This document shows positions 411-58,471 of a stretch of DNA of 64,000 bases, piece by piece (the stretch's first letter is position 1; each line of letters starts with the position of its first letter). Below the pieces are notes generated by a model, which saw only the letters and a list, made by a program, of their open reading frames with translations, did not search any database and was not told the DNA's origin. The position numbers were made by a program, and so were the translations under genes. This DNA comes from Eledone cirrhosa (lineage: Eukaryota): positions 26,970,001 to 27,034,000 of the forward strand of contig OZ024752.1 of assembly GCA_964016885.1 (NCBI GenBank). The letters run 5' to 3'.

Positions 411-429
411 TATATATATATATATATAA

Positions 430-1100
430 TATATAGTAAGAAACACAGTAAACCGTGTGTCTAAAATTACAAGGGTTGAAAAACTACATTTGTTTGAAAT
501 ATTTTCAAACAAATGTGGTTTTTCAACCCTTGTAATTTTAGACACACGGTTTACTGTGTTTCTTACTATATATTATTTATCAGCTCAGTATTTATACTTG
601 GAGCTTAATAGTTGCAGGGTTCCAATTGAGTGTTAACTCTAATTTTCTTATATATTTCTGCTCCCTCACAAGTTGAGCTTATTAAGTTGTGTGTGTTGGA
701 CTGTTATTTCTATTTCTATTCAATACACGCTTACTACGTTTGACTAGCGGAGCACGAGGTGACAAATTCATCTTTCTGTGTGAACGTTGGCAAATAGTGA
801 TTGTGGCATTTAATCAGAATCTCTCGCTGATGAAGCCCAGGGTTATCTGTTACAAACACACTCAGGGCGAAACAGATTAGGGATAATCTGTCCGAGAGAT
901 ATAATGGTTATTGAGGCGGTTTGTATATTTTATCATTCTGTCAGCTTCTTGGTTAAATATTTCAAACAAATGTGGTTTTTCAACCCTTGTAATTCTAGAC
1001 ACACGGTTTACTGTGTTTCTTACTATATATTATTTATCAGCTCAGTATTTATACTTGGATCTTAATAGTTGCAGGGTTCCAATTGAGTGTTAACTCTAAT

Positions 1101-1104
<4 letters not shown>
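430..1104 (+). mobile_element. Retrozyme-like element R1: short inverted arm plus ~1.3 tandem copies of a 457-nt non-coding unit, between (TA)n tracts
   Basis: 504-647 is repeated at 961-1104 (period 457); 430-500 is the reverse complement of the start of that repeat; one hammerhead in the unit; no ORF. Confidence 0.7.
819..900 (+). ncRNA. Type I hammerhead ribozyme, canonical core
   Basis: ATCTCTCG-CTGATGA-A-GCCC..GGGC-GAAA-CAGATTA(GGGA)TAATCTG-TC-CGAGAGAT: 8-bp helix I, helix II, 8-bp helix III, GUC site (C892). Confidence 0.92.
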
Positions 1105-1500: not shown

Positions 1501-1504
<4 letters not shown>

Positions 1505-1872
1505 ACATTAAATTATGGTATGCCTTCATCAGACAAAATACAATATATAACAGTTTTACAAATAAGCTTTGACGTACCCTATTAAAATGCAACCATTATT
1601 TTTGGAAGCCATCCAAAATAATGGTTGCATTTTAATAGGGTTCGTCAAACCTTATTTGTAAAACTGTTATATATTGTATTTTGTCTGATGAAGGCATACC
1701 ATAATTTAATGTGGTATCCCTGAAATATGTATAATGAAATAAATATGGTTTTATAAATATAGTTTCCATTTATTAATATCGTATATCTACTCCAATACTT
1801 GTCGAGTGCTTTATATCAGTTATAAAAATATTTACTTGTTGTATCCCAACAATTTTAAATAGAACTTTTGCA
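1501..1872. mobile_element. Fold-back insertion, family F1 (related copies at 13345-13880, 15864-16333, 19148-19476)
   Basis: Inverted arms meet near 1610; common 3' end ..AAATAGAACTTTTGC-(AT)n; carries a hammerhead. Confidence 0.75.
1679..1739 (+). ncRNA. Minimal type I hammerhead ribozyme (F1)
   Basis: TTTTGT-CTGATGA-AGGCATACCATA..TGTGGTATCCCT-GAAA-TATGTA-TA-ATGAAA. Confidence 0.8.
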
Positions 1873-2156
1873 TATATATATATATATATATTTAATTTAT
1901 ATGTCGGCGATGAATTTGTTTTGCAATGTTTTTGATATGAAATTAATTATAAACATATAACATATACTAAAGCGAAAACCAACCCAAACCAATCAGTTTG
2001 TGTGTTTTATTGTATATTTCTGGCAATATTATAGCAACCTGACCCTCCCTAAATATCACAATAATGTATAAGTCACGTTTACGTAAATCTGCAACTATAA
2101 GAAATTTAATTATATATACACATATCTGACAGAAGCCAAACGACATATATATATAT

Positions 2157-2471
2157 ATATTAAAATACAAATATTAATAAAATCGATGTTCTTTTGATCA
2201 ATTACATTTTATTATACATATTTCAGAGGTACAACAGTACGTACTCATCAGACAAAATATAATGATACATGACATACCCTGAGATGTTAAATGGTTAAGA
2301 TTTAATTAAGGTACTACCTTGATTAAATCTTAACCATTTAACATCTCAGGGTATGTCATGTATCATTATATTTTGTCTGATGAGGACGTACTGTTGTACC
2401 TCTGAAATATGTATAATAAAATGTAATTGATCAAAAGAACATCGATTTTATTAATATTTGTATTTTAATAT
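2157..2471. repeat. Near-perfect ~315-bp palindrome carrying two opposed hammerheads (2207-2257 minus, 2371-2421 plus)
   Basis: Centre near 2314 (AAGGTACTACCTT); plus motif TTTTGT-CTGATGA-GGACGTAC..GTACCTCT-GAAA-TATGTA-TA-ATAAAA. Confidence 0.85.
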
Positions 2472-2674
2472 TAATAACTCTGGAAAATACTTACTTGTAG
2501 ATGCTTCCAATCTACTGTAAAACTCCTTCTTTGATGTACTCATTGAATCTTGTTTAGCTCTTTAATATATATATATATAGCGATGACATACCAATGAAGG
2601 TTGGAAAATCACTGACGAAGGACTATTTTTATCATATGTAACCCATGTGCAACCACGCAGTATTCTTTCTCCTC

Positions 2675-10171: not shown

Positions 10172-10763
10172 TTCGTTTTTTTAATTGTTTTGCAAGATTT
10201 CTTGGCTGAGAGCGTGTGTTGTAACAGATATTGTTGTGCTTTGGGAGGGTCATGCTGCCAGTAGAAATACACGCATCTGTAGATTTTCACTTCTATTTAT
10301 TCACTTCTATTTATTATACATTTCCCGTTGGTTGGTTGGTTCAATAACCGGATGGTCGTTTATATATTGTCGAGGCTCTTTCGTCACACTCTGTGATCTC
10401 CTCAGTGACTGTGTTTTTGTTTTGTGTCTCTCCTTTGTTCTGTCATACATCATCAAAAACAAGATGGCATAGGACAGAACAAAGGAGGGACACAAAATAA
10501 AAACCCAGTCACTGAGGAGGTGACAGAATGTGTGACGAAAGAGATTTGTCAATATATGAACAACTGTCCGGTTATGGAACCAACCAACCAAACAGAAATT
10601 TATAAATTTTTAAATTTATAAATTTAATTTATAATAAATTGGAGTGAAAGCTCTGGTGAGTGTGTTTCTTATTGGGAACATGACCCTCCCAAGGTATAAC
10701 ACTATCGGTTTCAACACACGTTTTCAGATAAAGAATCTTGCTAAACAAATTCAGAAACGAAAT
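10172..10763. mobile_element. Fold-back of two PLE family A 3' UTRs, with decayed hammerheads near 10365-10410 (minus) and 10507-10550 (plus)
   Basis: Both arms homologous to the UTR downstream of the GIY-YIG ORF at 60199-60706; flanked by (TA)n. Confidence 0.75.
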
Positions 10764-10818: not shown

Positions 10819-10867
10819 TTGCTTACAATTGTTTCCTCCAAACCGAGGTTTGGATTCTTCGGAGCAA
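10819..10867 (-). ncRNA. Minimal hammerhead ribozyme, C4 variant
   Basis: TTGCT-CCGAAGA-A-TCCAAACC(TC)GGTTTGGA-G-GAAA-CAATTG-TA-AGCAA; second copy at 42727-42773. Confidence 0.8.
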
Positions 10868-11025: not shown

Positions 11026-11356
11026 CGTTCCTTTGTCAGTATTGAACAAACGAGCAACGATGGTTGCTAGACACTACGGCTTAATACGGGATGTTTGTTT
11101 ACAAACACACCGAGCATTATAATACATTTTCGGTGAATCCATACGTACATATATATGTGTGTGCATGTATGTATATATATATACATACTACTGTACGTCT
11201 GTATACATATATGTATGTACGTGTACATACTTATATTTAAGTAACAGCCGTACTAAGAGTGGGAAGTGAAATTTCGTTTCATCTTTTCCGATTATATATA
11301 TATATATATATATATATTGATATTTATATATATATATATATATATATTGATATTTA

Positions 11357-11744: not shown

Positions 11745-12098
11745 ATAAAGAAAAGAAGATGAAATCGTAAATGCAACTGGAGTCTTATTTAAAAAAATAT
11801 ATATATATTTATTTGGTTCCTATACCGGTTTCGCAGTTGTTCTGCTTTTCAAAAGTAGAGTTGAGATGGAGGGTCTGTAGTTTTTCTCACATCAGATGTG
11901 AGAAAAACCACAGACCTCCCATCTCAACTCTACTTTTGAAAAGCAGACGAACTGCGAAACCGGTAAAGGAACGAAATAAATATATATATATTTTTAAAAA
12001 TAAGACTCCAGTAGCATTTTCGATTTCATCTTTTTTTCTTTATAGTTTCACTTTATAGACACCTCGGTTATTTTTCATTTTGTAAAAACACCCCTCAC

Positions 12099-12104
<6 letters not shown>
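11745..12104. mobile_element. Fold-back insertion family F2 with two U3-A8 hammerheads (11819-11856 minus, 11932-11969 plus)
   Basis: Arms centred near 11894; CTT-TTGAAAA-GCAG..CTGC-GAAA-CCGG-TA-AAG; second locus 55972-56315. Confidence 0.78.
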
Positions 12105-12141
<37 letters not shown>

Positions 12142-12158
12142 ATAAAATAAGAGATTAA

Positions 12159-12209
12159 AGTTTAAGCAAAGAATCGCTGCTTTCACCCTTTACGGGATCT
12201 TCTGAAACT
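12159..12209 (-). ncRNA. Hammerhead-like motif, A4 variant (family F3)
   Basis: AGTTT-CAGAAGA-TCCC(GTAAA)GGGT-GAAA-GCA..TGC-TT-AAACT; also at 37310-37360 and 55773-55821. Confidence 0.62.
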
Positions 12210-12252
12210 TATCGAGCCCTCTTTGGATTTTAGTCTTCAAGTTTATTAGTAT

Positions 12253-12288
<36 letters not shown>

Positions 12289-12437: not shown

Positions 12438-12668
12438 AATAAATTATCGAGAATCTGAATTTCGGCCCCCGAAATAACGAAACACAATCTTCGAAATGCG
12501 TGGCAAAGGGCTCAATAGTTTGGATAAACTGACGGCTGAGCTCAAGCCGTTTCGACGGCTAATTCAGCCGTCGGGGTCCTACTCGTTCCTATTACCCACT
12601 CTACTACCCTAAGTATTGAGTACTTTGGTGCGTTATGGTCCACCTGGTTCCTTACCATATTTCCTTCG

Positions 12669-12706
<38 letters not shown>

Positions 12707-12707: not shown

Positions 12708-13055
12708 TACATTCACATGACCTATACCGACCAATCAAAATTGTTTTGACCACAAGAATTTTTGCAACACCATGTAGCGCTGGAGCCACTTTTTTAACAT
12801 AAAAACAGTCTTGGCGCAAAATCAGTTTTTTACATTCACATGACCTCTACCGACCAATCAAAATTGTTTTGACCACAAGAATTTTTGCAACACCATGTAG
12901 CGCTGGAGCCACTTTTTTAACATAAAAACAGTCTTGGCGCAAAATCAGTTTTTTACATTCACATGACCTCTACCGACCAATCAAAATTGTTTTGACCACA
13001 AGAATTTTTGCAACACCAAAGTAGCGCTGGAGCCACTTTTTTAACATGAAAACAG
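12708..13055. repeat. Tandem repeat, 123-bp unit, ~2.8 copies
   Basis: TACATTCACATGACCT starts at 12708, 12831 and 12954. Confidence 0.92.
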
Positions 13056-13280: not shown

Positions 13281-13347
<67 letters not shown>

Positions 13348-13877
13348 AAAGTTCTATTTAAAGTTGTTGGGATACAACAAGTAAATATTTTTATAACTGA
13401 TATAAAGCACTCGACAAGTTTTTGGAGTAGATATACGATATTAATAAATGGAAATTATATTTATAAAACCATATTTATTTCATTATACATATTTCAGGGA
13501 TACCACATTAAATTATGGTATGCCTTCATCCGACAAAATACAATATATGACAGTTTTACAAATAGCTTTGACGTACCCTTTTAAAATGCAACCATTACTT
13601 TTGGAGGCTGTCTGGATGATGATTTGTTTATATTATTTTAATAAGTCATAGTGTTAAGCACAATTAGAAAAAGACGGAGAGAAAGAAAGTAAAAGAAAAA
13701 AGACAGCCTCCAAAAGTAATGGCTGCATTTTAAAGGGGTACGTAAAAGCTATTTGTAAAACTGTTATATATTGTATTTTGTCTCATGAAGGCATACCATA
13801 ATTTAATGTGGTTTCCCTGAAATATGTATAATGAAATAAATATGGTTTTATAAATATAGTTTCCATTTATTAATATC

Positions 13878-13916
<39 letters not shown>

Positions 13917-14021
13917 AATAGAATGAAACGAAATTTCATTTCTCACTCTTAGTACGGCACTTACTTAAATGTAGGTATTATGTATACGTAAATACATATA
14001 TGTATACAGACGTACAGTAGC

Positions 14022-14095
<74 letters not shown>

Positions 14096-14488
14096 CATGC
14101 TACTGTACGTCTGTATACATATATGTATGTACGTATACATAATACTTACATATATATATATACATACAGGTACACATATATATATATGTACGTATCAGTT
14201 TAGCGAACGTTTATTATAACGCTCGATTTGTCCGTTTGTAAACAAACAGACAGCCTGATTTATGCCGTACGGTGTTAAGGCAACCACGTCACCTTTTTGT
14301 TCAACACTGACACAGGACAAAGCGAGCGTTATAATAAACGGTCGCTAAACTGATACGTACATATATATATATGTGTACCTGTATGTATATATATATATAT
14401 ATACACATGCTACTGTAGGTCTGTATACATATATGTATGTACGTATACATACATACTTACATATATATATATTGATATCGATATATTT

Positions 14489-14574
<86 letters not shown>

Positions 14575-14594
14575 TGATATCGATATATTTATAC

Positions 14595-14637
<43 letters not shown>

Positions 14638-14758
14638 TCAATTTATATATATATATCAATATATATATATATATCAATATATATATATATATCAATATAT
14701 ATATATATATATATCATGTATACGTACATACATATATGTATACAGACGTACAGTAGCA

Positions 14759-14832
<74 letters not shown>

Positions 14833-14991
14833 TATATGCATACAGGTACACATACATATATGCACGTATCAGTTTAGCGGACGCTTATTATAACGCCGCT
14901 TTGTTCGTTTGTAAACAAACTGAACAGCCTGAATTTATGCCATACGGTGTTAAGGCAACCACGTCACCTTTTTGTTCAACACTGACACAGG

Positions 14992-15036
14992 AACGATGTA
15001 CTAGTTTCAAGCTTGTTAGCTATCATCAGCACCGTT
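14992..15036 (-). ncRNA. Minimal type I hammerhead ribozyme (R2)
   Basis: AACGGTG-CTGATGA-TAGCT(AACA)AGCTT-GAAA-CTAG-TA-CATCGTT; 7-bp helix I, palindromic ACTAGT. Confidence 0.88.
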
Positions 15037-15450
15037 TACCCATCTGACAGATAGTTGAACGTTCGAAAGTATATACTTTCCTTATGAAAATTAACGGCTG
15101 AGCAGCCTAATTTGCATATTGAATGAGTTAAATCGGTCAGGCATACCGAAAACGATAAATTGAAATAAAATGAAAACGAAATTTCATTTCTCACTCTTAG
15201 TATGGCACTTACTTAAATGTAAGTATGCATGTATACGTACATACATATATGTATACAGACGTACAGTAGCATGCATATATATATATAATATATATATATA
15301 TATAATTTCGTTTTCATTTTATTTCAATTTATCGTATTCGGTATGCCAGACCGATTTAACTCACTCAAGATGCAAATTAGGCTGCTCAGCCGTTAATTTT
15401 TATAAGAAAAGTATATACTTTCGAACGTTCAACTATCTGGCAGATGGGTA

Positions 15451-15495
15451 AACGGTGCTGATGATAGATAACAAGCTTGAAACTAGTACATCGTT
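15451..15495 (+). ncRNA. Minimal type I hammerhead ribozyme (R2)
   Basis: AACGGTG-CTGATGA-..-GAAA-CTAG-TA-CATCGTT. Confidence 0.83.
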
Positions 15496-15654
15496 CCTGT
15501 GTCAGTGTTGAACAAAAAGGTGACGTGGTTGCCTTAACACCGTATGGCATAAATTCAGGCTGTTCAGTTTGTTTACAAACGAACAAGGCGGCGTCATAAT
15601 AAGCGTCCGCTAATCTGATACGTGCATATATGAATGTGTACCTGTATGCATATA

Positions 15655-15693
<39 letters not shown>

Positions 15694-16137
15694 GTATGTA
15701 CGTATACATGCATACTTACAATTAAGTAAGTGCCATACTAAGAGTGAGAAATGAAAATTCGTTTTCATTTTATTTAAATTTATATATATATCAATATATA
15801 TATAATAAATATCAATATATATATATCAATATATATTTATATATTTATATATATATATCAATATACGATATTAAAAAAATGGAAACTATATTTATAAAAC
15901 CATATTTATTTTATTATACATATTTCAGGGATACCATATTAAAAATATGGGATGCCTTCGTCAGACAAAATACAATATATAAACAGTTTTATAAATAATT
16001 TTGACGTACCATAAATATAAGCGACCATTAAGATAGGAAGCTGGCTTGGTAGTGACTACCAAGCCAGCTTCCTATCTTAATGGTCGCTTATATTTATGGT
16101 ACGTCAAAATTATTTATAAAACTGTTTATATATTGTA

Positions 16138-16199
16138 TTTTATCTGACGAAGGCATGCCATATTTTTAATATGGTATCCCTGAAAGATGTATAATGAAA
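16138..16199 (+). ncRNA. Hammerhead ribozyme (F1), with opposed copy near 15908-15970 in a palindrome centred near 16054
   Basis: TTTTAT-CTGACGA-AGGCATGCCATAT..ATATGGTATCCCT-GAAA-GATGTA-TA-ATGAAA. Confidence 0.72.
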
Positions 16200-16407
16200 T
16201 AAATATGGTTTTATAAATATAGTTTCCATTTGTTTAATATCGTATATCTACTCCAAAAACTTGTCGAGTGCTTTATATCGGTTATAAAATATTTACTTGT
16301 TGTAACCCAACAATTTTAAATAAAACTTTTGCATATATATATCAATATATATATATAAATATCAATATATATATATATATATATACATATATATATTGAT
16401 ATATATT

Positions 16408-17432: not shown

Positions 17433-17513
17433 ATATTGATATTTATATATATATATTGATATTGATATTTATATATATATATATATATATATATGTATTG
17501 ATATTTATATATT

Positions 17514-18125
17514 TCGTTTCTGAATTTGTTTAGCAAGATTCTTTATCTGAAAACCTGTGTTGAAACCGATATTGTGATACTTTGGGAGGGTCATGTTGCC
17601 AATAATAAACACACGCACCAGTGTTTTCACTTCAATTTATTATAATAAAGTTATAAATTTAGGAATTTATAAATTTCCGGTTGGTTGGTTAGTTCCACAA
17701 CCAGATGGTTGTTTATATATTGTCAAAGTTCTTTCGTCACACATTATGTGACCTCTTCAGTGACTGGGATTCTTTTCTTTGTTTTTGTGCCTCTCCTTTG
17801 TTCTGTCCTACGCCATTTTGTTTCTGTGTGTGTGTTGTGTGCTCAGTCTGCGCATGCGTCACATCCGGGTTTCTGTGTATGTTTATGTTCGTTTATTTAT
17901 TTGTTTATTTACATGTTACAGGTTGGTTGTTTGTTCTATGTGCGTGTGTGTTTTCATTTTGTCCTTAATTGTAACTTGTGATGTTGCTGTTCCACTCATG
18001 TTTTCTACTTAATTTTGGAAAGAACTAGGAATAAGGCTAATAGAGTAAACTCATGGTATGATAGCAATAAATACCAGAGTGTAATGTTCATCGATACAAC
18101 ACCTAGAGTGAATTAGCTTACAAAT
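17514..18125 (-). mobile_element. PLE family A: inverted 3' end (17514-18012, hammerhead near 17720-17765) fused to a short sense coding fragment (18013-18125)
   Basis: Minus strand ends ..KVEKHEWNSNITSYN*-UTR; plus piece reads NSWYDSNKYQSVMFIDTTP, as in 27057-27343. Confidence 0.8.
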
Positions 18126-18662: not shown

Positions 18663-19852
18663 AGGGAGAGGGAAATGCATAAAAGATGTCTATAAAAGGG
18701 AGAAAAAAATGAGAAAGAGCGAGAGAAAAGAAATGAAAAAGAAAGAGTGTGTAAAATGTTGAAATAGTGATGGAATGACTATAACTTTAAATGGCTAAAC
18801 ATGTCACCAGGCGACGATTAAGCGATCACGTGACACTAATAAAACTAATAGTGACATTTATCGTCTGAATAAGCTCTTAACATTGTAAGCTATAGAATTA
18901 AATTCTTTTTATCCAGTCCGTAATTCCGATCTAAGCGATTAATGAGCACGAAATTATATTATTAAACGGACTATTAAGTTTATGTTGCAGCTGCTTAATT
19001 TTGTATTTTGTTATTTCTAAAATACAGTTTATATATTTCCATCAGTAATATGTCCCATTGTCATCAGGTGACATTAGGGCTGTGACGTTCCAGTCATGAC
19101 AGTCAAGCATTAATTTAGACATTATATATATATATATATATATATATACGATATTAACAAATGGAAACTATATTTATAAAACCATATTTATTTTATTATA
19201 CATATTTCAAGGACACCACGTTAAAGTATGAGGTGCTTTCATCACACAAAATACAATATAAATCAGTTTTATAAATAAATATTGACATACCCTTAAAAAA
19301 TACAACCATTACTGTTGGAAGCTCCCGGATAGTATATAATAAAATAAATATGGTTTTATAAATATAGTTTCCATTTGTTAATATCGTATGTTTACTCCAA
19401 CTACTTGTTGAGTGCTTTAAATCAGTTATAAAAATATTTGCTTGTTGATCCCAACAATTTAAATAGAACTTTTGCATATATATATATATATATAGGATCG
19501 CATTCGCCAAACTGTATCGCACACCTCCTCCTTCTTCTTCTTCTTCTTCTTCTTCTTCTTCTTCTTCTTGTGGTCGCCCTCTAGTCCTCCCCTCGTTCTT
19601 CGCTATATTCCTCACCTTTTCTCCCTCAATTCCCCTCTTTCTGTCTTTCATTCTCCACCCCCTCCCTCTCTATCCATCTCTATTTATATCTCTCTCATCA
19701 AATTTAACATTTCTGGAAGATTCGGTACTAAGATATTCTGTCGAAACATTTGACTCTTCTTATTAAGTAAGTTTTCATATTTCAGCAATTATTGAGCGAA
19801 AATAATCCTAACTGCAGTTGAAGCGAATGCCGAACCAGTAATATATATATAT

Positions 19853-20096
19853 AGTGGTAGAACATTGGAAGGTAATATCCGTAGTGGTAGAGCACTCAGT
19901 CCATGGGACGAGTTAGGTAGAAGTGATTACACAACAGTTAGATCACCATACCGAGAAAAATTGTTTCACCTTAGCGGATCCTCAGCTCGTAATGGGCATT
20001 GTTATACGGACCGTATAACCATGCCCATTACGAGCTGAGGATCCGCTAAGGTGAAACAATTGTTCTCGGTATGGTGATCTAACTGTTGTGTAATCA

Positions 20097-20099
<3 letters not shown>
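19853..20099. mobile_element. Fold-back insertion family F4 with two hammerheads (19952-19989 minus, 20031-20068 plus)
   Basis: CGAG-CTGAGGA-TCC(GCTAA)GGT-GAAA-CAATTG-TT-CTCG; same sequence as the 3' UTR at 32300-32470. Confidence 0.82.
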
Positions 20100-22000: not shown

Positions 22001-22478
22001 AATTACAGAGGCAATAAACATAAAAGAATTACAACCAAAATTAATTAGAAAATATGAGTGGAACAGCAACATCACAACTTACAATTAAGGACAAAATGAA
22101 AACACACACACACATAGAACAAACAACCAACCAGTAACATGTAAATAAACAAATAAATAAATGAACATAAACACACACAGACACCCGGATGTGGCGCATG
22201 CGCAGACTGAGCACCCAACACACACACAGAAACAAAATGGCGTAGGACAGAACAAAGGAGAGGCACAGAAACAAAGAAAGGAATCCCCAGTCACTGAAGA
22301 GGTCACAGAGTGTGTGACGAAAGAACTATGACTATATATAAACAACTATCTGGTTGTGGAACCAACCAACCAACCAGAAATTTATAAATTTATAAATTTA
22401 TAAATATATAATAAATTGAAGTGAAAGCAACTGGTGCGTGTGTTTCTTATTGGCAACATGACCCTCCCAAAGTATAAA
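22001..22478 (+). mobile_element. PLE family A 3' fragment
   Basis: ITEAINIKELQPKLIRKYEWNSNITTYN* plus UTR, ending in (TA)n. Confidence 0.85.
22289..22333 (+). ncRNA. Minimal hammerhead ribozyme in PLE-A 3' UTR
   Basis: AGTCA-CTGAAGA-G-GTCACA(GAGTG)TGTGAC-GAAA-GAAC-TA-TGACT. Confidence 0.85.
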
Positions 22479-25440: not shown

Positions 25441-25947
25441 AAATGTAAGTATGTATGTATACGTACATACATATATGTGTACAGACGTACAGTAGTATGT
25501 ATATATACACATACATGCACACATATATGCACCTATCGGTTTACCGAACATTTCTTATAATGCTCGGTTTGTTTGTAAACAAACAAACAGCCTGAATTAC
25601 GCCGTACAGTGTTTAGGCAACCAGGTCACCTTTTTGTTCAACACTGACACAGGAACGATGTACTAGTTTCAAGCTTATTAGCTATCGTCAGCATTGTATA
25701 CCTTCCTGCCAGATGGTTGAACGTCTGAAAGTATATACTTTCCTTATGCATATTAACGGCTGAGCAGCCTAATTTACATATCGAGTGAGTTTAGTCGGCC
25801 GGGCGCACCGAAAACGATAAATGGAATAGAATGAAACGAAATTTCATTTCTCACTCTTAGTACGGCAGTTACTTAAATGTAAGTATGTATACATACATAC
25901 ATATATGTATACAGACGTACAGTAGTATGTATATATATACATACATG

Positions 25948-26020
<73 letters not shown>

Positions 26021-26260
26021 GCACGTATCGGTTTACCGAACATTTATTATAATGCTCAGTTTGTTTACAAACAAACCGAGCATTATAATAAATGTTCGGT
26101 AAACCGATACGTGCATATATATATGTATATGTGTGCATGTATGCATATATATACATACTACTGTACGTCTGTATACATATATGTATGTACGTATACATAC
26201 TTACATTTAAGTAACTGCCGTTCTAAGAGTGAGAAATGAAATTTCGTTTCATTCTATTCC
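25441..26260. mobile_element. Retrozyme-like R2: ~1.4 tandem units (minus) plus inverted arm; hammerhead at 25654-25697 (minus)
   Basis: AAATGTAAGTATG at 25441 and 25875 (period 434); strand switch near 26065. Confidence 0.75.
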
Positions 26261-26304
26261 AACTATATACATATATATATATATAGATATATATTTATAC
26301 ATAC

Positions 26305-26363
<59 letters not shown>

Positions 26364-26369
26364 CATACG

Positions 26370-26419
<50 letters not shown>

Positions 26420-26424
26420 CATAC

Positions 26425-26543
<119 letters not shown>

Positions 26544-26553
26544 CATACATATG

Positions 26554-26587
<34 letters not shown>

Positions 26588-26588
26588 T

Positions 26589-26639
<51 letters not shown>

Positions 26640-26767
26640 CATACATATGTATATATATATATATGTATATATAGATATATATTTTTACATACATATGTAT
26701 ATATATATATATGTGTATATATAGATATATATTTATACATACATAGGTATATATATATATATATATA

Positions 26768-28338
26768 GTTTTGCGAGGTTTTTTTTATATGAAATCGTGT
26801 GTCGAAACAAATATTGTTATACTTGGGGAGGGTCATATTTGTGTAATATTGCCAGAATTAATAACAGAACACACTCACTGTTTGGTTGGTTTTCGCTTTT
26901 CGCTTCTGTGTCCTTTATATCGGTAATCTAATTTATTCGGTCCTCAATGTTGCCATTGACTGACCGACGGTCAAAAATAATACAGATACAATATAGACAC
27001 AAACACATATATATAGTTTATCAAAGTTCTTTCGTTGCACATTTGCAACATCGTCAACCGCATGCAGTTCTCTGGCTACAACCAAAGAGACAGAGTCAGA
27101 GTATACGAAGGAGCCATGGAGAAGTATAAGACCCTCATAGAACTGGACATGAAAGGAATTTGCCCATTATACAGGAGCAAATCATGGAATAGCTTAGATA
27201 GGGCTAGACATAAGATAGGGAAAGCCACCTCATGGTACGACAACCAGAGATACCAGAGTGTCATGTTTGTGGACGCTACCCCCGGAGGGAAATTAGCTAA
27301 CCAGTGTAGAAAGGCCCTGAGAAAGACCCACTTAAAGATTTAGGTGGTAGAAAAGCCAGGAACCACCATAAAATCCCTGATCAGCAAAACCTACCCTTTT
27401 AAGAAAACCACTGTACTAATAGGAAATGTATCATATGTAAGGTAAACCCCCGGATAAATTGTAAAACTAGAAACGTAGTCTATAGCATAAGATGTACAGA
27501 GGCTACTTGCAGAAACATGACAACAACATACATAGGCGAGACAGTCCGTAGCATAGATGAAAGGATAGACCAACACCGGGGGGAACTAAAAGGACGAAAA
27601 AACGGATCAGTACTATACGAACATGCCAGACAACAACACGACGGTAACATAGACAACATAGAAATTAGAATAATATCTAAACATAGAAATGACCCAGCAG
27701 ATAGGCAAATCAGAGAGGCCAGTGAAATAGAACTTAGAAGGCCAAGACTAAACAGAAAGAATGAATGGAATAACAAAAACACCTAAACAAACAACACTGA
27801 CCTAAGAGAAGTATAAATAAATAAATAAATAAATAGATAAATAAATAAATAAATACATACACAAGCACAATAACAACAAACACATATAAACACACACTAG
27901 TAAAGATAGAATACATTAACCGATACACAGTCACCCAATCACGAACACAGATCAAACAAAACACTATACACACACGCAAACGCATGAGCAAAGAAGACAA
28001 AATAAAATAAACAAACAAATAAATAAATATATAGACAGACTAATTAAAAATGGCGTAGACATACAATGTAACGGGAGGAAACAATAGCACCACTGACGAT
28101 GTTGCAGATGTGCAACGAAAGAACTTTGATAAACTATATATATGTGTTTGTGTCTATATTGTATCTGTATTATTTTTGACCGTTGGTCAGTCAATGGCAA
28201 CATTGAGGACCGAGTATATTAGATTACCGATATAAAAGACACAGAAGCGAAAATCGAAAACCAACCAAACAGTGAGTGTGTTCTGTTATTAATTCTGGCA
28301 ATATTACACAAATATGACCCTCCCCAAGTATAACAATA
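26768..28338 (+). mobile_element. PLE family A relative: inverted 3' end (26768-27056) plus 5'-truncated sense copy, in (TA)n
   Basis: 26810-27056 is the reverse complement of 28094-28338; hammerhead CTGACGA-T-GTTGCA(GATG)TGCAAC-GAAA-GAACTT at 28089-28130. Confidence 0.88.
27057..27786 (+). pseudogene. PLE thumb/linker plus GIY-YIG endonuclease, disrupted
   Basis: PLYRSKSW..SVMFVDATPGGKL..*VVEKPG, Cys-rich linker, NVVYSIRCTEATC..YIGETVRSIDERIDQH..RQIREA..LNRKNEW; stop at 27341-27343 and a frameshift near 27410. Confidence 0.85.
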
Positions 28339-28598
28339 TATATATATATATATATGGGAACGAGTAGGACCCCGACGGCTGAGCTCAAGCCGTTTCGACG
28401 GCTAATTCTGGACTCATACGCATATATATATATGCGTATGTATATACATAGAAGTAGTTCCACAACGGTTAGTTCACCATACTATACATTTGTTCTCGGT
28501 ATGGTTCTATAACTGTTGTGGAACTACTTCTACCAAACTTGTCCCATGGACTGAGAGTGCTCTACTACTACGGATATAACCCTCCAGTCTTCTACTAT

Positions 28599-28654: not shown

Positions 28655-28657
<3 letters not shown>

Positions 28658-28850
28658 CGAAGGAAATGTGGTAAGGAACCAGGTGGACCATAACGCACCA
28701 AAGTACTCAATACTTGAGGTAGTAGAGTGGGTAATAGGAACCAGTAAGACCCCGACAGCTGAGCTCAAGCCGCCTCGACGGCCAACTCTGGTCCAGAGTT
28801 GGCCGTCGAGGCGGCTTGAGCTCAGCTGTCGGGGTCTTACTGGTTCCTAT
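28655..28850. mobile_element. Fold-back insertion family F5 (other pieces at 12530-12670, 28357-28420, 50247-50390, 55080-55200)
   Basis: Perfect arms about 28735-28850 centred near 28792; family carries the 3' half of a hammerhead (GAAA-CGGCT..AGCCG-TC-GGGGTC). Confidence 0.7.
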
Positions 28851-32049: not shown

Positions 32050-32466
32050 TACATATTCTAATGAGATTACGCAATAGCGATTGCCTAAACTCAAGAAATG
32101 AATTCTTCACACGTTGTCCACACATCTGGAAACAGTTCTTTCATAACTACAAAGCTCCGGATTGAATTACAACAATATCCCAATTTTCTTATCAACTAGA
32201 AACTTTCGGACCTTCGCAGTTATCTCCCTTACACCTCTCGCACGCAATTTAGCATTGCCTGAGTTAAGTGACCGTTTCAGCGCATGTGCGTTCGTACGGT
32301 TGTCCTTCCTGTTCCGTATAACCATGTCCATTAGGAGCTGAGGATACGCTAAGGTGAAACAATTGTTCTCGGTATGGTGAACTAACTGTTGTGAAACCAC
32401 TTCTACCTAACTCGTCCCATGGACTGAGTGCTCTACCACTACGGATATTACCTTCCAGTGTTCTAC

Positions 32467-32471
<5 letters not shown>
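32050..32471 (+). mobile_element. 3' end of a third PLE-type family (F4): ORF terminus plus UTR with hammerhead at 32335-32370
   Basis: DCLNSRNEFFTRCPHIWK..* resembles the LNxRxE..xCxH terminus of PLE GIY-YIG proteins; GAG-CTGAGGA..GAAA-CAATTG-TT-CTC; ends in (TA)n. Confidence 0.68.
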
Positions 32472-32531
<60 letters not shown>

Positions 32532-32624
32532 GTACGAGGTGAGTTTTATTGTAGCACAATAAAGCAATGCAAATATCGGATAAGTAGCACACTACAGTTT
32601 ATAGGACTGGAGTATAAATAATAA

Positions 32625-32945
32625 AAGATCAAAAGATGGTTAAAAGAGTTCCAAGTATTTTATTATGCGCATTTCAAAAACAAATATCATCATGGGATGA
32701 TATCTGCGTTCTCATCAGATAAAATAGGGAGACATGATATGAAGCTTAAAAAACACTTGTGAGCAGTGAAGTTTTAAATCAACATATGTTGATTTAAAAC
32801 TTCACTGCTCACAAGTGTTTTTTAAGCTTCATATCATGTCTCCTTATTTTATCTGATGAGAACGCAGATATCATCCCATGATGATATTTGTTTTTGAAAT
32901 GCGCATAATAAAATACTTGGAACTCTTTTAACCATCTTTTGATCT

Positions 32946-32946
<1 letters not shown>
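32625..32946. repeat. Spacer-less 322-bp palindrome with two intact hammerheads (32656-32726 minus, 32845-32915 plus)
   Basis: Centre AACAT|ATGTT at 32785/32786; TATTTTAT-CTGATGA-..GCAGATATCATC(CCAT)GATGATATTTGT..-GAAA-TGCGCA-TA-ATAAAATA. Confidence 0.92.
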
Positions 32947-37107: not shown

Positions 37108-37201
<94 letters not shown>

Positions 37202-37436
37202 AATAATAATAAATGTGAAGACTAAAATCCAAAGAGGGCTCGATAAGGATAAATATATATCAAATATATAAGAACCGTAGAGCAAATATTTATTAAAATA
37301 ACAGATTAAAGTTTAAGCAAAGAATCGCTGCTTTCACCCTTAATGGGATCTTCTGAAACTAACAAAGTCAATCTGTAAACGCAGAAGTGGATATTTCAAA
37401 AACCGTTGCAAAAACTTTAATCTGTTACTTTAATAA

Positions 37437-37471
<35 letters not shown>

Positions 37472-37595: not shown

Positions 37596-37599
<4 letters not shown>

Positions 37600-37651
37600 G
37601 TAAGTATGTATGTATACGTACAAACATATATGTATACAGACGCACAGTAGC

Positions 37652-37686
<35 letters not shown>

Positions 37687-38359
37687 CAGGCACACATATA
37701 TATATGCACGTATCAGTTTACCGAACATTTATTATAATGTTCGCTTTGTTCGTTTGTAAACAAACGAACAGCCTGATTTACGCCGTACAGTGTTCAGGCC
37801 ACCACGTCACCTTTTTGTTCAACACTGACACAGGAACGATGTACTAGTTTCAAGCTTGTTAGCTATCGTCAGCACCGTATACCTTTCTGCCAGATGGTTG
37901 AACGTCCGAAAGTATATATTTTCCCTATGAAAATTAACGGCTGAGCAGCCTAATTTGCATGTCGAGTGAGTTCAGTCGACCAGGCGCACCGAAAACGATA
38001 AATGGAATAGAATGAAACGAAATTTCATTTCTCACTCTTAGTACGGCACTTACTTAAATGAAAGTATGTATGTATACGTACATACATATATGTATACAGA
38101 CGTACAGTAGCATGTATATATATATATATATATATATACATACAGGCACACATATATATATGCACGTATCAGTTTACCGAACATTTAATATAATGTTCGC
38201 TTTGTTCGTTTGTAAACAAACGAACAGCCTGATTTACGCCGTACAGTGTTTAGGCAACCAAGTCACCTTTTTGTTCGTTTGTTTACAAACGAACAAAGCG
38301 AACATTATAGTAAATGTTCGGTAAACTGATACGTGCATATATATATGTGTGCCTGTATG

Positions 38360-38416
<57 letters not shown>

Positions 38417-38518
38417 GCTACTGTACGTCTGTATACATATATGTAAGTACATATACATACATACTTACATTTAAGTAAGTGTCGTACTAAGAGTGAGAAA
38501 TGAAATTTCGTTTCATTC

Positions 38519-38522
<4 letters not shown>
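37596..38522. mobile_element. Retrozyme-like R2: ~1.5 tandem units (minus) plus inverted arm; hammerhead at 37835-37878 (minus)
   Basis: AAATG(T/A)AAGTATGTATG at 37596 and 38056 (period 460); strand switch near 38272. Confidence 0.78.
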
Positions 38523-38552
<30 letters not shown>

Positions 38553-38554
<2 letters not shown>

Positions 38555-38928
38555 GAAATGAATACAAAGTGTTTAAAACCATTAAAACAAGTTTATATAA
38601 TTGTGCACCTACGTACGTTTCGCCCTTAGCGGGCTTATCAAGGGCATGGAAAGCAAAATAATGTTCAATATAGGTCCCAGGAGAGAATATACGGTTAAAT
38701 TAACATCATCATTCATTTTCTCCGTGCATGTGTTTTTATTATCACACAGCCCTGCTCGGAGAAAATGAATGATTATGTTAATTTAACCGTATATTCCCTC
38801 CTGGGACCTATATTGAACATTATTTTTCTTTCCATGCCCTTGATAAACCGGCTAAGGGCGAAACGTACGTAGGTGCACCATTATATAAACATGTTTTAAC
38901 GGTTTTAAAATCTTTGTATTCATTTCCT
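38553..38928. mobile_element. Fold-back insertion with two U3-A8 hammerheads (38604-38646 minus, 38835-38877 plus)
   Basis: TGCCC-TTGATAA-GCCC(GCTAA)GGGC-GAAA-CGTACG-TA-GGTGCA. Confidence 0.83.
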
Positions 38929-39104
38929 TTATTATCGCTTTTCTTATTTTTTCTCGCTCACTAAATATTGACGCCTCTAATATTTAACCGTGTAGGCACG
39001 AGTATTGAGCACACATGCATAAACTATTGGCAACTAAATATATGTAACGACCATATTTCCATTCTCTTCTCTCTCTCGATACCTAATCATTCTCTCTCTC
39101 TCTC

Positions 39105-41879
<2,775 letters not shown>

Positions 41880-42773: not shown

Positions 42774-44009
42774 ATTTATTATTGAATGAACACTTATATG
42801 ACCTCCTTTTCACCCAAGAGACATACAGATACATATGCAAATATTGTGGGTCAACATTCATTACAGCATTTAGTGTGGCAGTACACATTTAGAGATTACA
42901 TTCATATTAAAAGATACAATCAAAAATACAGGTTAATTAAGCAGTTATAGAGTGCAATAGTTATACATGTGGCAAGCACGTGCGTCTTGTTTATATATTG
43001 TGGCAGAGAGTTACGTGTAATAGAAGCACTTAAGCTGGTAATCAAGAGTGTTAAGGGGGTTGATCTGGTAATGAATTCTTTATATGATTGTTATAGCCTG
43101 TGCGTGGAGAAATAATATAAGCATTAAAAATAATGTAAGCATTAAAAATATAAGCATTAAAAATATTGGAAATGCGTAGCGAAGCGATGATATGGATTTC
43201 ATGCACTGCGACATTTTCATAGTCCGGGGAGCGTATATTTCAGATTATATGCCCCTCACATAATCCACGACGATTCGATATTGGGCGTTTGACAATCCTC
43301 TTAGAGAATCGTAGTCTGATGTTCTTTAGCTCAATACAGCAGGTTCTTACGTTGCGAGAATCGACATCGAAATATTACCCGGAAGTGTGTGTGTGGCTAA
43401 GGGGAGTTAATGCATGAGGGGAGGTAACTCAGTGGTTTCTATTACTAACTATTAAATTGTGTCTCAAAATAGTCCCTAACTTCTATGGTTATGCGCAGTT
43501 TCTACAAATTTAATGTGTCTTAACTATAAAGTAGTCTATTAAGCTGTGCTGAAGGTGTTCATATTATGGTGATTATCCTCCATCGTAGAGTGCCACAAAT
43601 GAATATTTTACACGACGAGCGAGATTTCTAAATTAATGATCATTGTGATTGTAGTCTACTCATCGAACCAGGCAAGGTGATTCCAGAATCACTTCAACAC
43701 ACAATGATCCCTGGTAAGTTCCGGGTCAGTGCATGTTATATTGGATGTCGAAAGATAACTATCACTAGGGTAGACCAGAGGTCAATCCACACTCCTCATG
43801 TCACTAATCTGACCATCAAATCATACATAAATATATGTACAACCCATACGCCACTTGCAATACATTCACTGCACTCAGCATACCGGTCGTACAGCTCATC
43901 AACGTTCCTAGATTAATAAGTCTTCCATTTATCCAACGATGGCACTTCTTCCGCATAGCACCAACAATACAATCAATTCAATGCTTAAATTTTACATTAA
44001 CTATAAATA

Positions 44010-46965
44010 GCACCCGGAGACTTGCTCCTGAAAATCACTAAAGCAATCGACCAGTGCTACCACTCCAGAGTCCAATACGAGAAAAAACGGCTCAAGCGAA
44101 AATATGAGTGGATCTTGTCGAAACGCCACAACGAGAACATCGACACTAACGAACAGACGGACCAGCACCACGTGGAAAACAACAACTTAACAACCGCCAC
44201 CGCCGCAACCACCAACACAGAGCCATATCTCAACGATGCGACGCACCTGGTCACCGACCTAACCGGCACTCTCACGAGCGACGAGCTGAAACTGATACAC
44301 CTCGGACCTAAGTTCATCGTCACACAACATCTCGACGACAGACTGAAACTCAACATCGAGGCCAACTTTTGTCGAGCCGCTTACCAACTTAAATGGGTGA
44401 CCGCCATCAACAGCGCCACAGAAAATAACAGCGCCGACGCAACCCACCCCAAGTTCCCCACTTACCACCCCGACAACCCACTCCATCCCCCACCTACCAA
44501 CCACGAACTCGACACTAAACTCATCAGGCTAAAACACTCCATCTCGGATATACTTCACAAACACACACACACACGCACAACACATAACCTCACCAAATCT
44601 CAACTCACCACTCTCTCCAACCTAAAATCGAAGAACCTCATCTATCTCCCCTCCGACAAGGGAAAAGAATTCTGCGTCATCAGCAGAGAGGCCTACAACA
44701 CCCTGGCCCTCCAACACCTTGACGATGACAACCTTTACTCCAAGTTCACGGGAATCACTTCCGCGCAGATAGAAGAACACATCAACTCCGCCTGGACCAA
44801 CATCTGCGACCGGCGGAAGCTCCCGTAGAAGCTGAGATACAACCTCCTCACGAGGAACAGCAGACTACCCGCCTTCTACCACCTCGTGAAAACACACAAA
44901 CAGGGACCCGACCTGAAAATGAGACCCATCGTATCGAGCGTGGAGGGACCACTCTACAAAATTTCATGGCTCCTAGCCAGAATACTCAAACCCATCTTAG
45001 ACACCTTGCCGGGACACGTTAACAGCTCCGAGGAGGTGTTTAAGCGCCTGCATCAAATGGATCCCGACACCAGAAGGAATAACAGATATGCCTTCAGCCT
45101 TGATGTAGTCGCTCTCTACACCTCGGTCCCGGCACTCCCGGCCGTCAATATACTAATGGAACGCGTCCAATCCACCGACCTACACTGCTTCGGGCTCACC
45201 ACCACTGACATCCACCAACTCCTCTCCATCGTCGTCGACAACACCTATTTCGGATTCCTTGACCAATATACCAACAAACCTCGGGATTGCCCATGGGATC
45301 AAGCCTATCAGGTGTGCTAGCGATCTCTTACATGGACAACCTCGAACGCAAGGCACTCAACGCCTGCCACCCCAACGCCGTAGCCTTTTTCTCAAGGTAC
45401 GTGGACGATATCCTCATCCTCACATCTTCCCAAGACACGGCGAACAGAATCTATGTGACGTTCAACAACACGGACGAGAACATTGACTTCAGTGTTGAAC
45501 ACCCCAACGAAGACGGGTCACTTGCCCTCCTCGACTTTCGAATCAACATCACAGAACAGGGAAGGATCCACTGCAACTTCTACCGAAAGGCAGCCTGCAG
45601 GGACCTATTCGTTCACTACAAGTCCGCCCTCCCTAACAGTGCCAAAAGAGGATACATCACGAACGAGATCGCGCGAATCAAAAACAGATGCAGCGATCCC
45701 GCGAGTGGCGTCACTCATACCAAGCGATTCCTCGAGGTGTTGGAGACGAACGGGTACCCTACCTCGATCACAGACAGAATAGGAGACACCAGACGCAAGA
45801 GACAGAGAAGCACCCAAGGCAAGTGCTTCCTTAAAATGCCACACCTGGGCGAGAAAACCACCAACGCTATCCGCAAGGCTATACGGAGGGAGGGCCTCGA
45901 CATCCACCTGGCCCACTCGGGCCTCTCCCTACGAAGATGCCTCTCCAGGAAACCCGAAAAATCTACTGACGCATGCTCCCTCAGAGACTGCCCGATACGC
46001 CATGCGAACTGTTGCCTACGCACATACGTCGTGTATAAGATAGAATGTGACAGGTGCAACCAATACTACATAGGTAGCACAATTCGACCTTTGCACATCC
46101 GGATCAAGGAACACATTAAAACCAGGGCCTCGTCTTTCCGGAAACACATAGACAAATGCGGAAACAAAGACGGAAGGCCCATTGTCACAATTCTAGCGAC
46201 TGAAAGAAACGTCGGCACGTTACGTATCAAGGAAGCGCTTTTTATCAAACGACTGCAACCGCAAATAAACAATCGATCAGAGAGAAGCGAAATGAGACGG
46301 CTGGTTTAAGTTAACAAGCGATGCAACAACACACAACACACGCACACACACACACACGCAAACGAGACAACTACACACACACACGCACACACACACAGTA
46401 GCATTCCACCATACGAACATACTACACTGCCAATACAGAGGAACAAGGCAACAACACACGCTCACACACTCAAGCGAGACAACAACACACGCACACACAC
46501 ACACAGTAACATTTAACAAACAGGCAGAGAATGGACTGACAGCTAGCGCCATCCCACTCCCTCACTCGGCCGCTGACCTCTGTACGACCGACCCCATTTC
46601 ACGCGCACGCGCGCTCTGCCGAATACCTCAGATATTCAAAACAACAAACAGCGAAGGACGCGTTCCGGACTTGTCCGACAGACAACCTTTTCCCCCACCC
46701 CGGAAAAAACCCCCGGTTGCCGGTTGATGGATGTGAATCCGAAATATATAGGGACTATTAAATCTCTCCCAAGGTAACTCTCTCTTGTGTTGTTATTTTT
46801 ATTTTATCCTTTATACTGTTCCCTTCATTCTACACATCTCACACATCTTATACACACCACGCATCTCAACATAGACCCACTTTCATCTCTCTCTCCACCA
46901 CCGGACCTTGTTACCCGGAGATTTACCCATTTGCATCGTCGAGGCTTCCAAACGACTTAAAGATA
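44010..46965 (+). mobile_element. Near-full-length Penelope-like element ending in (TA)n
   Basis: GC-rich body, CA-rich 3' UTR, partial hammerhead at 46720-46755, then TA array; 5' boundary uncertain. Confidence 0.88.
44022..46309 (+). pseudogene. Penelope-like retroelement polyprotein: reverse transcriptase plus C-terminal GIY-YIG endonuclease
   Basis: LGPKF, PSDKGKEF, KTHK..MRPIVS, FSLDVVALYTSVP, GLPMGSSLS, RYVDDIL, LLDFRI, YRK, then Cys linker, VVYKIECDRCNQYYIGST.R.LHIRIKEH..KEALFIK..PQIN; in-frame TAG at 44826-44828 and a 1-nt frameshift near 45266. Confidence 0.95.
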
Positions 46966-50225
<3,260 letters not shown>

Positions 50226-51974: not shown

Positions 51975-52870
51975 AGAAGGTATAAGGTAGCTTCAGTAAT
52001 CTAACAATGTATTATCACAAAAAATTATTATAAAATTATTGATACAGGATTAACAAAGACATAATAATATATATTCCTGCCTAGTTAAGGTATAAGGTAG
52101 CTTCAGTAATCTAATAATGTATTATCACAAAAAATTATTATAAAATTATTGATACAGGACTAAAAATTATTACAAAATTATTATAAAATTACCACAAAAT
52201 TATTACAAAATTATCAAATTATCATAAAATTACAATAAAATTATTACAAAATTATCAAATTATCATAAAATTATCATAACATTATTACAAAATTATCACA
52301 AAATTATTACAAAATTATCACAAAATTATTGATACAGGATTAACAAAGACATAATAATATATATTCCTGCCTAGTTAAGGTATAAGGTAGCTTCAGTAAT
52401 CTAATAATGTATTATCACAAAAAATTATTATAAAATTATTGATACAGGACTAAAAATTATTACAAAATTATTATAAAATTACCACAAAATTATTACAAAA
52501 TTATCAAATTATCATAAAATTACAATAAAATTATTACAAAATTATCAAATTATCATAAAATTATCATAACATTATTACAAAATTATCACAAAATTATTAC
52601 AAAATTATCACAAAATTATTGATACAGGATTAACAAAGACAACAATATATATTCCTGCCTAATTAACAAGTAATCGAAACACTATTAACAGTCAGGCAAA
52701 ATTAGCTCAGGGATATCCCGCGCTCGGATACTTTACACACACACAGCAACACATAGGATTTGCACAGACACAATGGTATATTCCTGCCTAATTAACAAAC
52801 AATCGATTAACAATTGATGGTCAAGAAAATGTACTCAGGGATATCCCGCGCACGGATATTTACATACATA
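51975..52870. repeat. Nested tandem repeats (110-bp and 290-bp periods, AAAATTATTAC-type minisatellite, two diverged ~130-bp units)
   Basis: AAGGTATAAGGTAGCTTCAG at about 51977, 52087 and 52377; CTCAGGGATATCCCGCGC twice. Confidence 0.85.
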
Positions 52871-54962: not shown

Positions 54963-55324
54963 GCATATATGTATGCACACACATACACACACACACATAT
55001 ATATATATATACATATACACATTCTCACACGCACACACACAGACATATATATATATATATATATACATATTCACACACACGGCCGGAGCTCAGCCGTCGG
55101 GGACCTGGCTATTTTCCTATTACCCACTCTTCTACCCTAAGTATTGAGTACTCTGGTGTGTTATGGTTCACCTGGTATCTAATCACACCCTCTTTGTTGT
55201 TATATATATATATATATATATACACGGGTGTGTATGATTGTGTATATAAGATGTTAAATGATAATTGAACAAGTGTTCAATTTCAACTGTTGAAAATTGC
55301 AAACTTGACTGTCACCACTGAATA

Positions 55325-55749: not shown

Positions 55750-55962
55750 TATTTATTAAAATAACAGATTAAAGTTTAAGCAAATAAACGCTGCTTTCAC
55801 CCTTAACGGGACCTTCTGAAAGGGTGAAAGCAGCGTTTCTTTGCTTAAACTTTAATCTGTTATTTTAATAAATATTCGCTCTACGGTTCTTATATATTTG
55901 ATATATATTTATCCTTATCGAGCCCTCTTTGCATTTTAGTCTTCCAATTTATTATTATTACT
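55750..55962. mobile_element. Fold-back insertion family F3
   Basis: Arms switch at about 55821; same family as 12138-12257 and 37198-37438. Confidence 0.75.
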
Positions 55963-58393: not shown

Positions 58394-58471
58394 CACTACT
58401 TTCTTAGTTCAAATTCCGTTGGATTCGAATCATTATTCGAATCCAACGGAATTTGAACTAAGAAAGTAGTG
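58394..58471. repeat. Perfect 37-bp inverted repeat with 4-nt spacer
   Basis: CACTACTTTCTTAGTTCAAATTCCGTTGGATTCGAAT-CATT-reverse complement. Confidence 0.92.

Follow-up and report, generated by a model that had tools for sequence, protein, structure and literature searches.

An insertion of a Penelope-like element (PLE), a retrotransposon, can carry, adjacent to its 5' end, an inverted and 5'-truncated copy of the same element, with palindromic junctions and a bias towards (TA)n targets (PMC3846280, PMC8557442). In such insertions a tail of 30-40 bp, often present at one end only, extends the pLTR into the ORF's beginning (PMC3846280). The origin of the inverted pLTRs and of the one-sided tail has been called open (PMC8557442, PMC11167929), and it is the question raised by the insertion at 26768-28335 of the window, by which we mean the whole 64-kb stretch of DNA analysed. 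This focal insertion was initially described as an inverted 3' end followed by a truncated sense copy, which holds, with the addition that the tail (26768-26814) sits on the inverted arm and that the ORF-bearing arm is tail-less. The two pLTR arms (26815-27056 and 28094-28335) are separated by 1037 nt; the left one has the tail without the ORF, and the right one has 1 kb of ORF without the tail. With tail and ORF on opposite arms, neither arm can have been copied from the other, which argues against simple snap-back or self-priming.

The layout itself is not new. Our contribution is a counted rule, one long and one short end per insertion, together with arms that are not nested in each other; the rule is countable because many short insertions from many families lie in this window. 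Both observations speak for two primings rather than self-priming and render the origin of PLE inverted repeats directly testable, including in an existing in vitro system.

Head-to-head insertions in the window

The window is (TA)n-rich, with 30% GC. A self-comparison after masking of TA tracts was used to extract local inverted pairs, which were found at all 13 loci named in the initial annotation and at more than a dozen further ones (Table 1). At the 13 named loci the arms are 52-292 nt long, 82-100% identical and overlapping in every case. Element 3' ends point outward wherever a hammerhead or an ORF sets the polarity, and (TA)n adjoins nearly all outer ends; the left flank of 38553-38928 consists of (TC)n plus TATA, with no TA tract. 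The initial annotation had read each insertion as two 3' ends joined head to head and anchored in (TA)n: the outward 3' ends are confirmed and the anchoring nearly so, but the two ends are not equal, one being short and one long in 12 of the 13. Some of its boundaries also omit tails (2157-2471 extends to 2564, 32625-32946 begins at 32530, and the tail at 38553-38928 was missed as well), and instead of a single family the loci comprise at least nine unrelated ones.

To call every insertion two-armed was likewise an overstatement. A second arm is not in view for the copies at 22001-22477, 32300-32469, 55080-55200, 28357-28413 and 11026-11292, nor for 59660-60703, which has just a small inversion at its 5' joint. 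Single-arm copies number at least seven, counting a second and unrelated PLE whose ORF is disrupted by one stop and one frameshift; no inverted arm was found for it, and its 3' side meets a TA tract near 46963. The loci are PLE insertions and hammerhead-bearing, non-coding PLE derivatives arranged head to head, the retrotransposon origin first proposed being supported. Our set, curated by hand within the one 64-kb window, holds 30 insertions covering about 13 kb; under hand curation symmetric pairs would be easier to see, not harder.

Table 1. Coordinates of the focal locus and of other insertions in the window (S, short end; L, long end)
Feature	Position	Strand	Description
Focal: left target flank	26264-26767		degenerate (TA)n
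Focal: 47-nt tail, inverted arm only	26768-26814	-	long (L) end at 26768
Focal: inverted pLTR arm, 242 nt	26815-27056	-	236/242 identical to 28094-28335
Focal: head-to-head junction	27054-27056		microhomology TCA (3 nt) common to inverted arm and ORF
Focal: 5'-truncated ORF, RT thumb/linker	27054-27343	+	49% to P0001, E 4e-32
Focal: Cys linker CX4CX2C and GIY-YIG endonuclease with CCHH	27403-27786	+	39% to P0001, E 3e-25
Focal: A/C-rich 3' UTR	27787-28092	+	
Focal: minimal type I hammerhead-like motif	28093-28135	+	CTGACGA, 7-bp stem II, GAAA; loose scan
Focal: direct pLTR arm	28094-28335	+	ends at short (S) end, seven codons after ATG 28314
Focal: right target flank	28336-28355		(TA)n
Focal-like family	1892-2062		antisense tail piece and sense S arm, no overlap
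Family A, copy 1	1503-1871		short arm left, L right
Family A, copy 2	13345-13879		L left, S right, 87-nt unassigned spacer
Family A, copy 3	15866-16332		S left, L right, 1-nt centre
Family A, copy 4 (not named earlier)	19149-19475		S left, at least 111 nt longer inward; L right
Family B	2161-2564		S left, L right (97-nt tail), 1-nt centre, hammerhead at 2377
Family C, sole L+L pair	10172-10761		arms 82% identical
Family C	17513-18117		antisense L arm of 506 nt with a sense ORF piece of more upstream origin attached
Family C, 76-nt mini insert	47377-47452		tail piece and S piece, no overlap
Family D, copy 1	11748-12104		S left, L right, 1-nt centre
Family D, copy 2	55973-56313		L left, S right, 3-nt centre, arms 136/136 identical
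Family G, copy 1	19854-20098		L left, S right, 1-nt centre
Family G, copy 2	28449-28598		S left; L right, 13 nt longer inward
Family H	28657-28847		L left (80-nt tail), S right, 1-nt centre, arms 55/55 identical
Family I	32530-32946		L left (95-nt tail), S right, 0-nt centre; both arms carry a hammerhead
Family J	38553-39104		short arm left by (TC)n-TATA; right arm runs on
Family K, copy 1	55753-55961		S left, 17 nt longer inward; L right; microhomology AA
Family K, copy 2	12139-12255		S piece and tail-only piece head to head, no overlap, microhomology CT
Family K, copy 3	37197-37437		L left, 80 nt longer inward; 32-nt S arm right
Family M	429-1104		inverted S arm and 458-nt tandem unit; type I hammerhead at 827
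Family N	13915-15780, 25442-26262, 37597-38523, 11026-11292		456-nt hammerhead-bearing monomer
Family P	41227-41879		tandem unit of about 460 nt; hammerhead -41382; ends 110 nt apart in unit
Second, unrelated C-terminal-EN PLE ORF	44007-46309		Pfam RVT_1 and GIY-YIG

Short, palindromic, non-coding, TA-flanked and multi-copy, such insertions look like MITEs of DNA transposons with TA target duplication, and palindromes of this kind risk annotation as MITEs or as microRNA hairpins (Rfam gave many sub-threshold microRNA matches in the window). Symmetric fixed TIRs with a fixed internal length are nevertheless not what the families display: the ends are asymmetric, centre and arm length vary among the four copies of family A, the two of D, the two of G and the three of K, and the tailed arm lies left in some copies and right in others. 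Since junctions vary between copies, these are not fixed MITEs, and the initial view that the junctions form de novo is borne out. With 20 hammerhead motifs against 0.2 expected, and a focal family that has an RT thumb and a GIY-YIG domain, a DNA-transposon origin is hardly credible.

A few other repeats were seen in the window. A perfect 37-nt inverted pair with a 4-nt centre lies at 58394-58471, without TA flanks. Two tandem arrays, both 98% matching, occupy 52021-52666 (period 290 nt, 2.2 copies) and 12708-13055 (period 123 nt, 2.8 copies). Where a truncated family C copy has its 5' joint (59605-59684), short direct and inverted micro-repeats resemble the product of repeated template jumps.

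Pairing of a short and a long end

Every multi-copy family has two fixed outer ends, a short one (S) and a long one (L) that consists of S plus a tail. In families C, A, D, G, H, K and N, both ends recur within a few nucleotides across independent copies, so that the arms use two different fixed ends and not, as first supposed, the same 3' end primed on both strands. The tail (L minus S) measures 47-97 nt in ten named loci, 157 nt at 1503-1871 and at most 173 nt at 38553-39104. Exactly one tail, hence an S+L pair, is present at 12 of the 13 loci named initially (p 0.0017 relative to free choice at 0.5), in 19 of 20 insertions of multi-copy families (p 2e-5; 1503-1871 is excluded here, its short arm stopping at TAT, 68 nt inside the family A S end) and in 28 of 29 over all loci scored by hand, among which no S+S pair was found. 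In the sole L+L pair, at 10172-10761, the resemblance of each arm to its partner does not exceed that to other copies, a pattern that two templates or two events would produce.

These counts leave out 14165-14460 and 12520-12669, which are nested or damaged, and 58394-58471, which is not TA-flanked. The copy at 17513-18117, whose short end is not visible, was excluded from the pairing counts and included in the tally of inner sequence given below. Spacers at 13345, 38553 and 40410 were assigned to neither arm, and spacer counts exclude the extra whole monomers of families M, N and P. The 87-nt spacer of family A copy 2 (13614-13700) has no match elsewhere in the window; it is either upstream element sequence or captured filler.

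In the focal family, the stretch by which L exceeds S is the PLE tail known from the literature, through which the pLTR reaches into the beginning of the ORF. There S falls after codon 7 of the frame and L at codons 23-27, and the focal tail extends a reading frame beginning MTLPKYN, the probable N-terminus of the ORF. From the ATG onward the tail frame is identical at 45 of 54 nt between two families, whereas the upstream pLTR matches at only 78 of 150. Just past S, the element matches the TA target over 3-7 nt in seven of 14 families (chance 0.119, p 5e-4), as at the focal S end, where the element sequence continues ATAT, the same as the target; the match is just 0-1 nt in families G, U, O, X1 and J. 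Folding of the S-L region in eight arms revealed no structure common to them (z between -2.07 and 0.99, below -2 in one of the eight). An exact search of metagenome and viral contigs for the conserved end motif returned 0 matches, and ten related loci in short metagenome contigs yielded one weak 34-nt inverted match.

Junctions, nesting and the route of insertion

The inner sides of the arms bear on how the two were made. In 11 insertions the tail-less arm has at least 10 nt of inner sequence that is absent from the tailed arm, against two with the opposite arrangement (37197 and 28449; p 0.022). The 11 include the focal copy with its 1 kb of ORF, and in three inserts (12139-12255, 47377-47452 and 1892-2062) the arms do not overlap at all. 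Microhomologies occur at several junctions: TCA at the focal one, AA and CT in family K and AAC in the mini insert. The focal TCA is deduced from ORF contigs of runs X1 and X5 that diverge just before 27054, the arm ending at 27056. In seven of the 12 named S+L loci the inner ends lie within 3 nt of each other, leaving centres of 0-3 nt, where re-pairing predicts 0.09 such loci. Young arms are mutual nearest relatives (97-100% identity against 81-95% to other copies), while in the old pairs of family D copy 1 (92%) and family A copy 2 (95.5%) an arm resembles its partner no more than it resembles other copies. The two primings appear to be coupled. A junction at the hammerhead cut site was considered and rejected, the junctions lying on both sides of the cut.

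One cDNA, or an antisense RNA (PMC3846280), might instead fold back and be copied outward, the tail later being lost from one arm through endonuclease resolution or through deletion from the TA match at S to the (TA)n flank. This would suit the 0-3 nt centres, the near-identity of the arms and the TA match at S in half of the families, and palindromic junctions have been so interpreted in print (PMC3846280), the tail being ascribed to EN-mediated resolution. A copied arm must, however, lie within its template arm, and in the 11 insertions, three of the inserts having no overlap at all, it does not. The antisense self-priming model of 2013 (Arkhipova et al., PMC3846280) has the same snap-back topology and is open to the same objection, short of a subsequent loss of the tail from exactly one arm; the non-nested arms argue against it. 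Snap-back, which the initial annotation had offered as one route, thus fails as the general one. A later removal of the tail could rescue it, but the loss would have to strike exactly one arm almost always, even where the arms are 100% identical (55973, 28657 and 19149), and to operate also in the five families with a TA match of 0-1 nt. We regard fold-back as unlikely. Comparing the divergence of the arms, with identical arms taken as a sign of snap-back, does not discriminate, because near-identical arms occur even where neither contains the other.

Dual priming has been postulated for L1 (PMC2837659). If it took place here on two separate RNAs, with each strand freely choosing its start site, the non-nested arms would be accounted for, as would the L+L pair at 10172-10761 with arms just 82% identical; transcripts of one master copy would also yield identical arms. 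But free choice gives S+L in at most half of the insertions, against the 19 of 20 observed, and for independent cDNAs ends no more than 3 nt apart would be far rarer than observed, which makes two RNAs a quite improbable source. That two independent single-arm insertions landed back to back in one TA tract is very unlikely as a general explanation. The TA tracts of the window have been hit repeatedly, and 10172-10761 and the nested family N may have arisen in that way; most junctions, though, have no TA between the arms, and the arms always belong to one family, are nearest relatives when young and obey the S+L pairing.

We consider it probable that a two-armed insertion stems from two primings in one event, on both target strands, one at S and one at L. 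A GIY-YIG endonuclease, probably acting as a dimer, would nick a (TA)n tract on both strands. One 3' end would prime reverse transcription at S, often aided by the 3-7 nt TA match, and the other would prime at L, one tail length downstream. Both cDNAs would be antisense and point inward; their 3' ends would be joined almost end to end or through a microhomology of 2-3 nt, and the second strand of each would then be templated by the other. The product would consist, in order, of flank, inverted arm, junction, direct arm and flank, and would bear a single tail. From the pairing we infer that S was used on one strand and L on the other in the same event; a single RNA may have served both, and the mode of cDNA joining is that suggested by the junctions. 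Against this reading, the mechanism is read wholly from finished insertions in one 64-kb window, and the 0-3 nt centres in seven of 12 loci are also expected from snap-back. The inner excess on the tailed arm at 37197 and 28449, the old pairs and the single-arm copies count against it as well.

Priming from both strands of the break, already put forward in the initial annotation, is supported by the non-nested arms and the S+L pairing. The self-complementarity of (TA)n, invoked there as the cause, is not: the same layout has been published with 8-10 bp duplications in ordinary targets (PMC3846280), so (TA)n is not required. In vitro, a lizard PLE nicks and extends both strands and uses two start sites that bracket the tail (PMC11167929); its enzyme showed no strand difference in start site, so a strand-specific use of S and L is not shown for it.

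A further step can be proposed only tentatively, namely that PLE integration would by default be a two-primer reaction on one RNA, in which a dimer would assign the strands to S and L, and the reverse transcriptase starting at L would trail, displace the S cDNA and jump onto it. A jump at the 3' end of that cDNA would give a perfect palindrome, and an earlier one via microhomology would leave the ORF in the tail-less arm. The loci 37197 and 28449, with their longer tailed arm, do not fit such a trailing enzyme simply. If true, one scheme would cover inverted pLTRs, the one-sided tail and MITE-like palindromes, and the self-priming model would be replaced.

Could the palindromes be fold-back chimeras of assembly or amplification? 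An identical 76-nt insert does occur twice: the twin of the mini insert lies at 48918-48993, 1541 nt away inside a 3.3-kb TA tract, by local duplication or by duplication in the assembly. Yet the arms are diverged by 0-18%, stop at family-fixed sites and are confined to these elements, and raw reads of another sample contain comparable junctions, so that an artefact is highly improbable. That sample, run X21, has the same species label and gave four further junctions of the antisense-to-ORF kind: 26884>27748 (106 reads), 26886>27762 (111), 26880>27739 (45) and 26907>27766 (42). Each joint has a single read start, so the support is weak and the reads may be PCR copies or library chimeras. Run X1 holds a near-perfect fold-back, 26879>28272, in 2 contigs. 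Joints on opposite strands in the sequencing runs were set aside, as their reads fit either arm, and no record among the reads and contigs of these runs was shown to bridge the focal junction.

Element identity, hammerheads and comparison with known systems

The focal thumb/linker and endonuclease align with P0002, which has the RT core; in the focal copy the core has been truncated away. Alignments with P0001 and P0002 indicate for the focal family a single ORF with an RT followed by a C-terminal GIY-YIG domain. A stop at 27341-27343 is absent from nearly all other copies in the sequencing runs, and the endonuclease part is out of frame with the upstream part through a frameshift near 27407. 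Pfam gave no match for the two focal ORF fragments alone and a GIY-YIG match (E 8e-5) on the related copy at 59632-60195. The CCHH of the endonuclease is present in the family: two His and, between the equivalents of GIY and YIG, a pair of Cys. The linker CX4CX2C, from 27412 onward, is conserved in P0001-P0003 and conforms to the CX2-5CxxC linker upstream of GIY-YIG that is characteristic of Neptune/Nematis (PMC8557442). Judged by these predicted linker and endonuclease motifs, the focal element is a C-terminal EN+ PLE of Neptune/Nematis type, and its family has the inverted 5' copy and the one-sided tail overlapping the ORF start. A target-site duplication, if any, is hidden within (TA)n at the focal locus.

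In the window, the strict scans returned 11 hammerhead motifs, where 100 shuffles gave 0.05, and the relaxed scan found the 20 mentioned above (30 shuffles). They sit in families A, B, C, I, K, M, N, P and U, oriented toward the outer ends. The focal motif at 28093, whose stem I is weak, was missed by the stricter scans; the related copies at 22294, 60509 and 17760 pass them. Neither scan found a motif in families D, G, H, J, O and X1, where just partial or degenerate ones are seen by eye; these six were classed by shared anatomy. No hammerhead family is among the Rfam matches listed, all of which are sub-threshold microRNA hits or other chance matches.

Families M, N and P consist of tandem non-coding monomers (458, 456 and about 460 nt) with type I hammerheads at +827, -15029, -37872 and -41382, the one at 827 being fully canonical with stems 8/4/7. 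Their monomer anatomy marks them as putative non-LTR retrozyme-like elements. The fold-back centre of family M lies at a short palindrome of the element. The family N monomer holds a TA run, so its copies nest, and its four fold-backs likewise pair a short with a long end. Non-LTR retrozymes, non-autonomous derivatives of PLEs, are also tandem, ORF-less and hammerhead-bearing (PMC7229834; bioRxiv 10.64898/2026.07.22.740005). Unlike those described in PMC7229834, from which the word 'inverted' is absent, M, N and P here also insert as head-to-head S+L pairs.

With EN+ PLEs the present loci share the head-to-head inverted copy, the tail at one end and, in part of the families, the pLTR hammerhead, and with the Cys-linker clades the (TA)n bias (PMC3846280, PMC8557442). 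The tails are mostly 47-97 nt here against 30-40 in published EN+ PLEs (PMC3846280), the one-tail state is near-obligate and counted, and most copies are non-coding stumps of many families. The Poseidon element PAc of Anolis likewise has two start sites and an AT-rich target in vitro (Frangieh et al. 2024, PMC11167929); its internal reverse transcription starts inside the ORF start, and a dimer is predicted (PMC11167929). PAc showed no strand difference in start site and no target homology, whereas S here often has a 3-7 nt TA match. The paper makes no link to inverted pLTRs, its sole 'inverted' referring to a dT block (PMC11167929). In the literature searched we found no two-primer model for PLE inverted repeats; older papers and supplements lay outside its scope, and such a model may be in print.

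Mechanistically, L1 twin and dual priming come closest: there, too, both nicks prime, and inverted pieces are joined by microhomology or end joining (Meyer et al. 2010, PMC2837659). In L1 twin priming the pieces do not overlap, an internal deletion results and the second site varies (PMC2837659); the present insertions have a fixed second site and, usually, overlapping arms, which yields inverted repeats. A product of the L1 type is seen only at 12139, 47377 and 1892, the arms of the 13 named loci all overlapping.

Further hammerhead-like motifs were noted in the window at 10862 (-), 42769 (-), 29353 (+), 29174 (-) and 55552 (-); those at 10862 and 42769 are alike.
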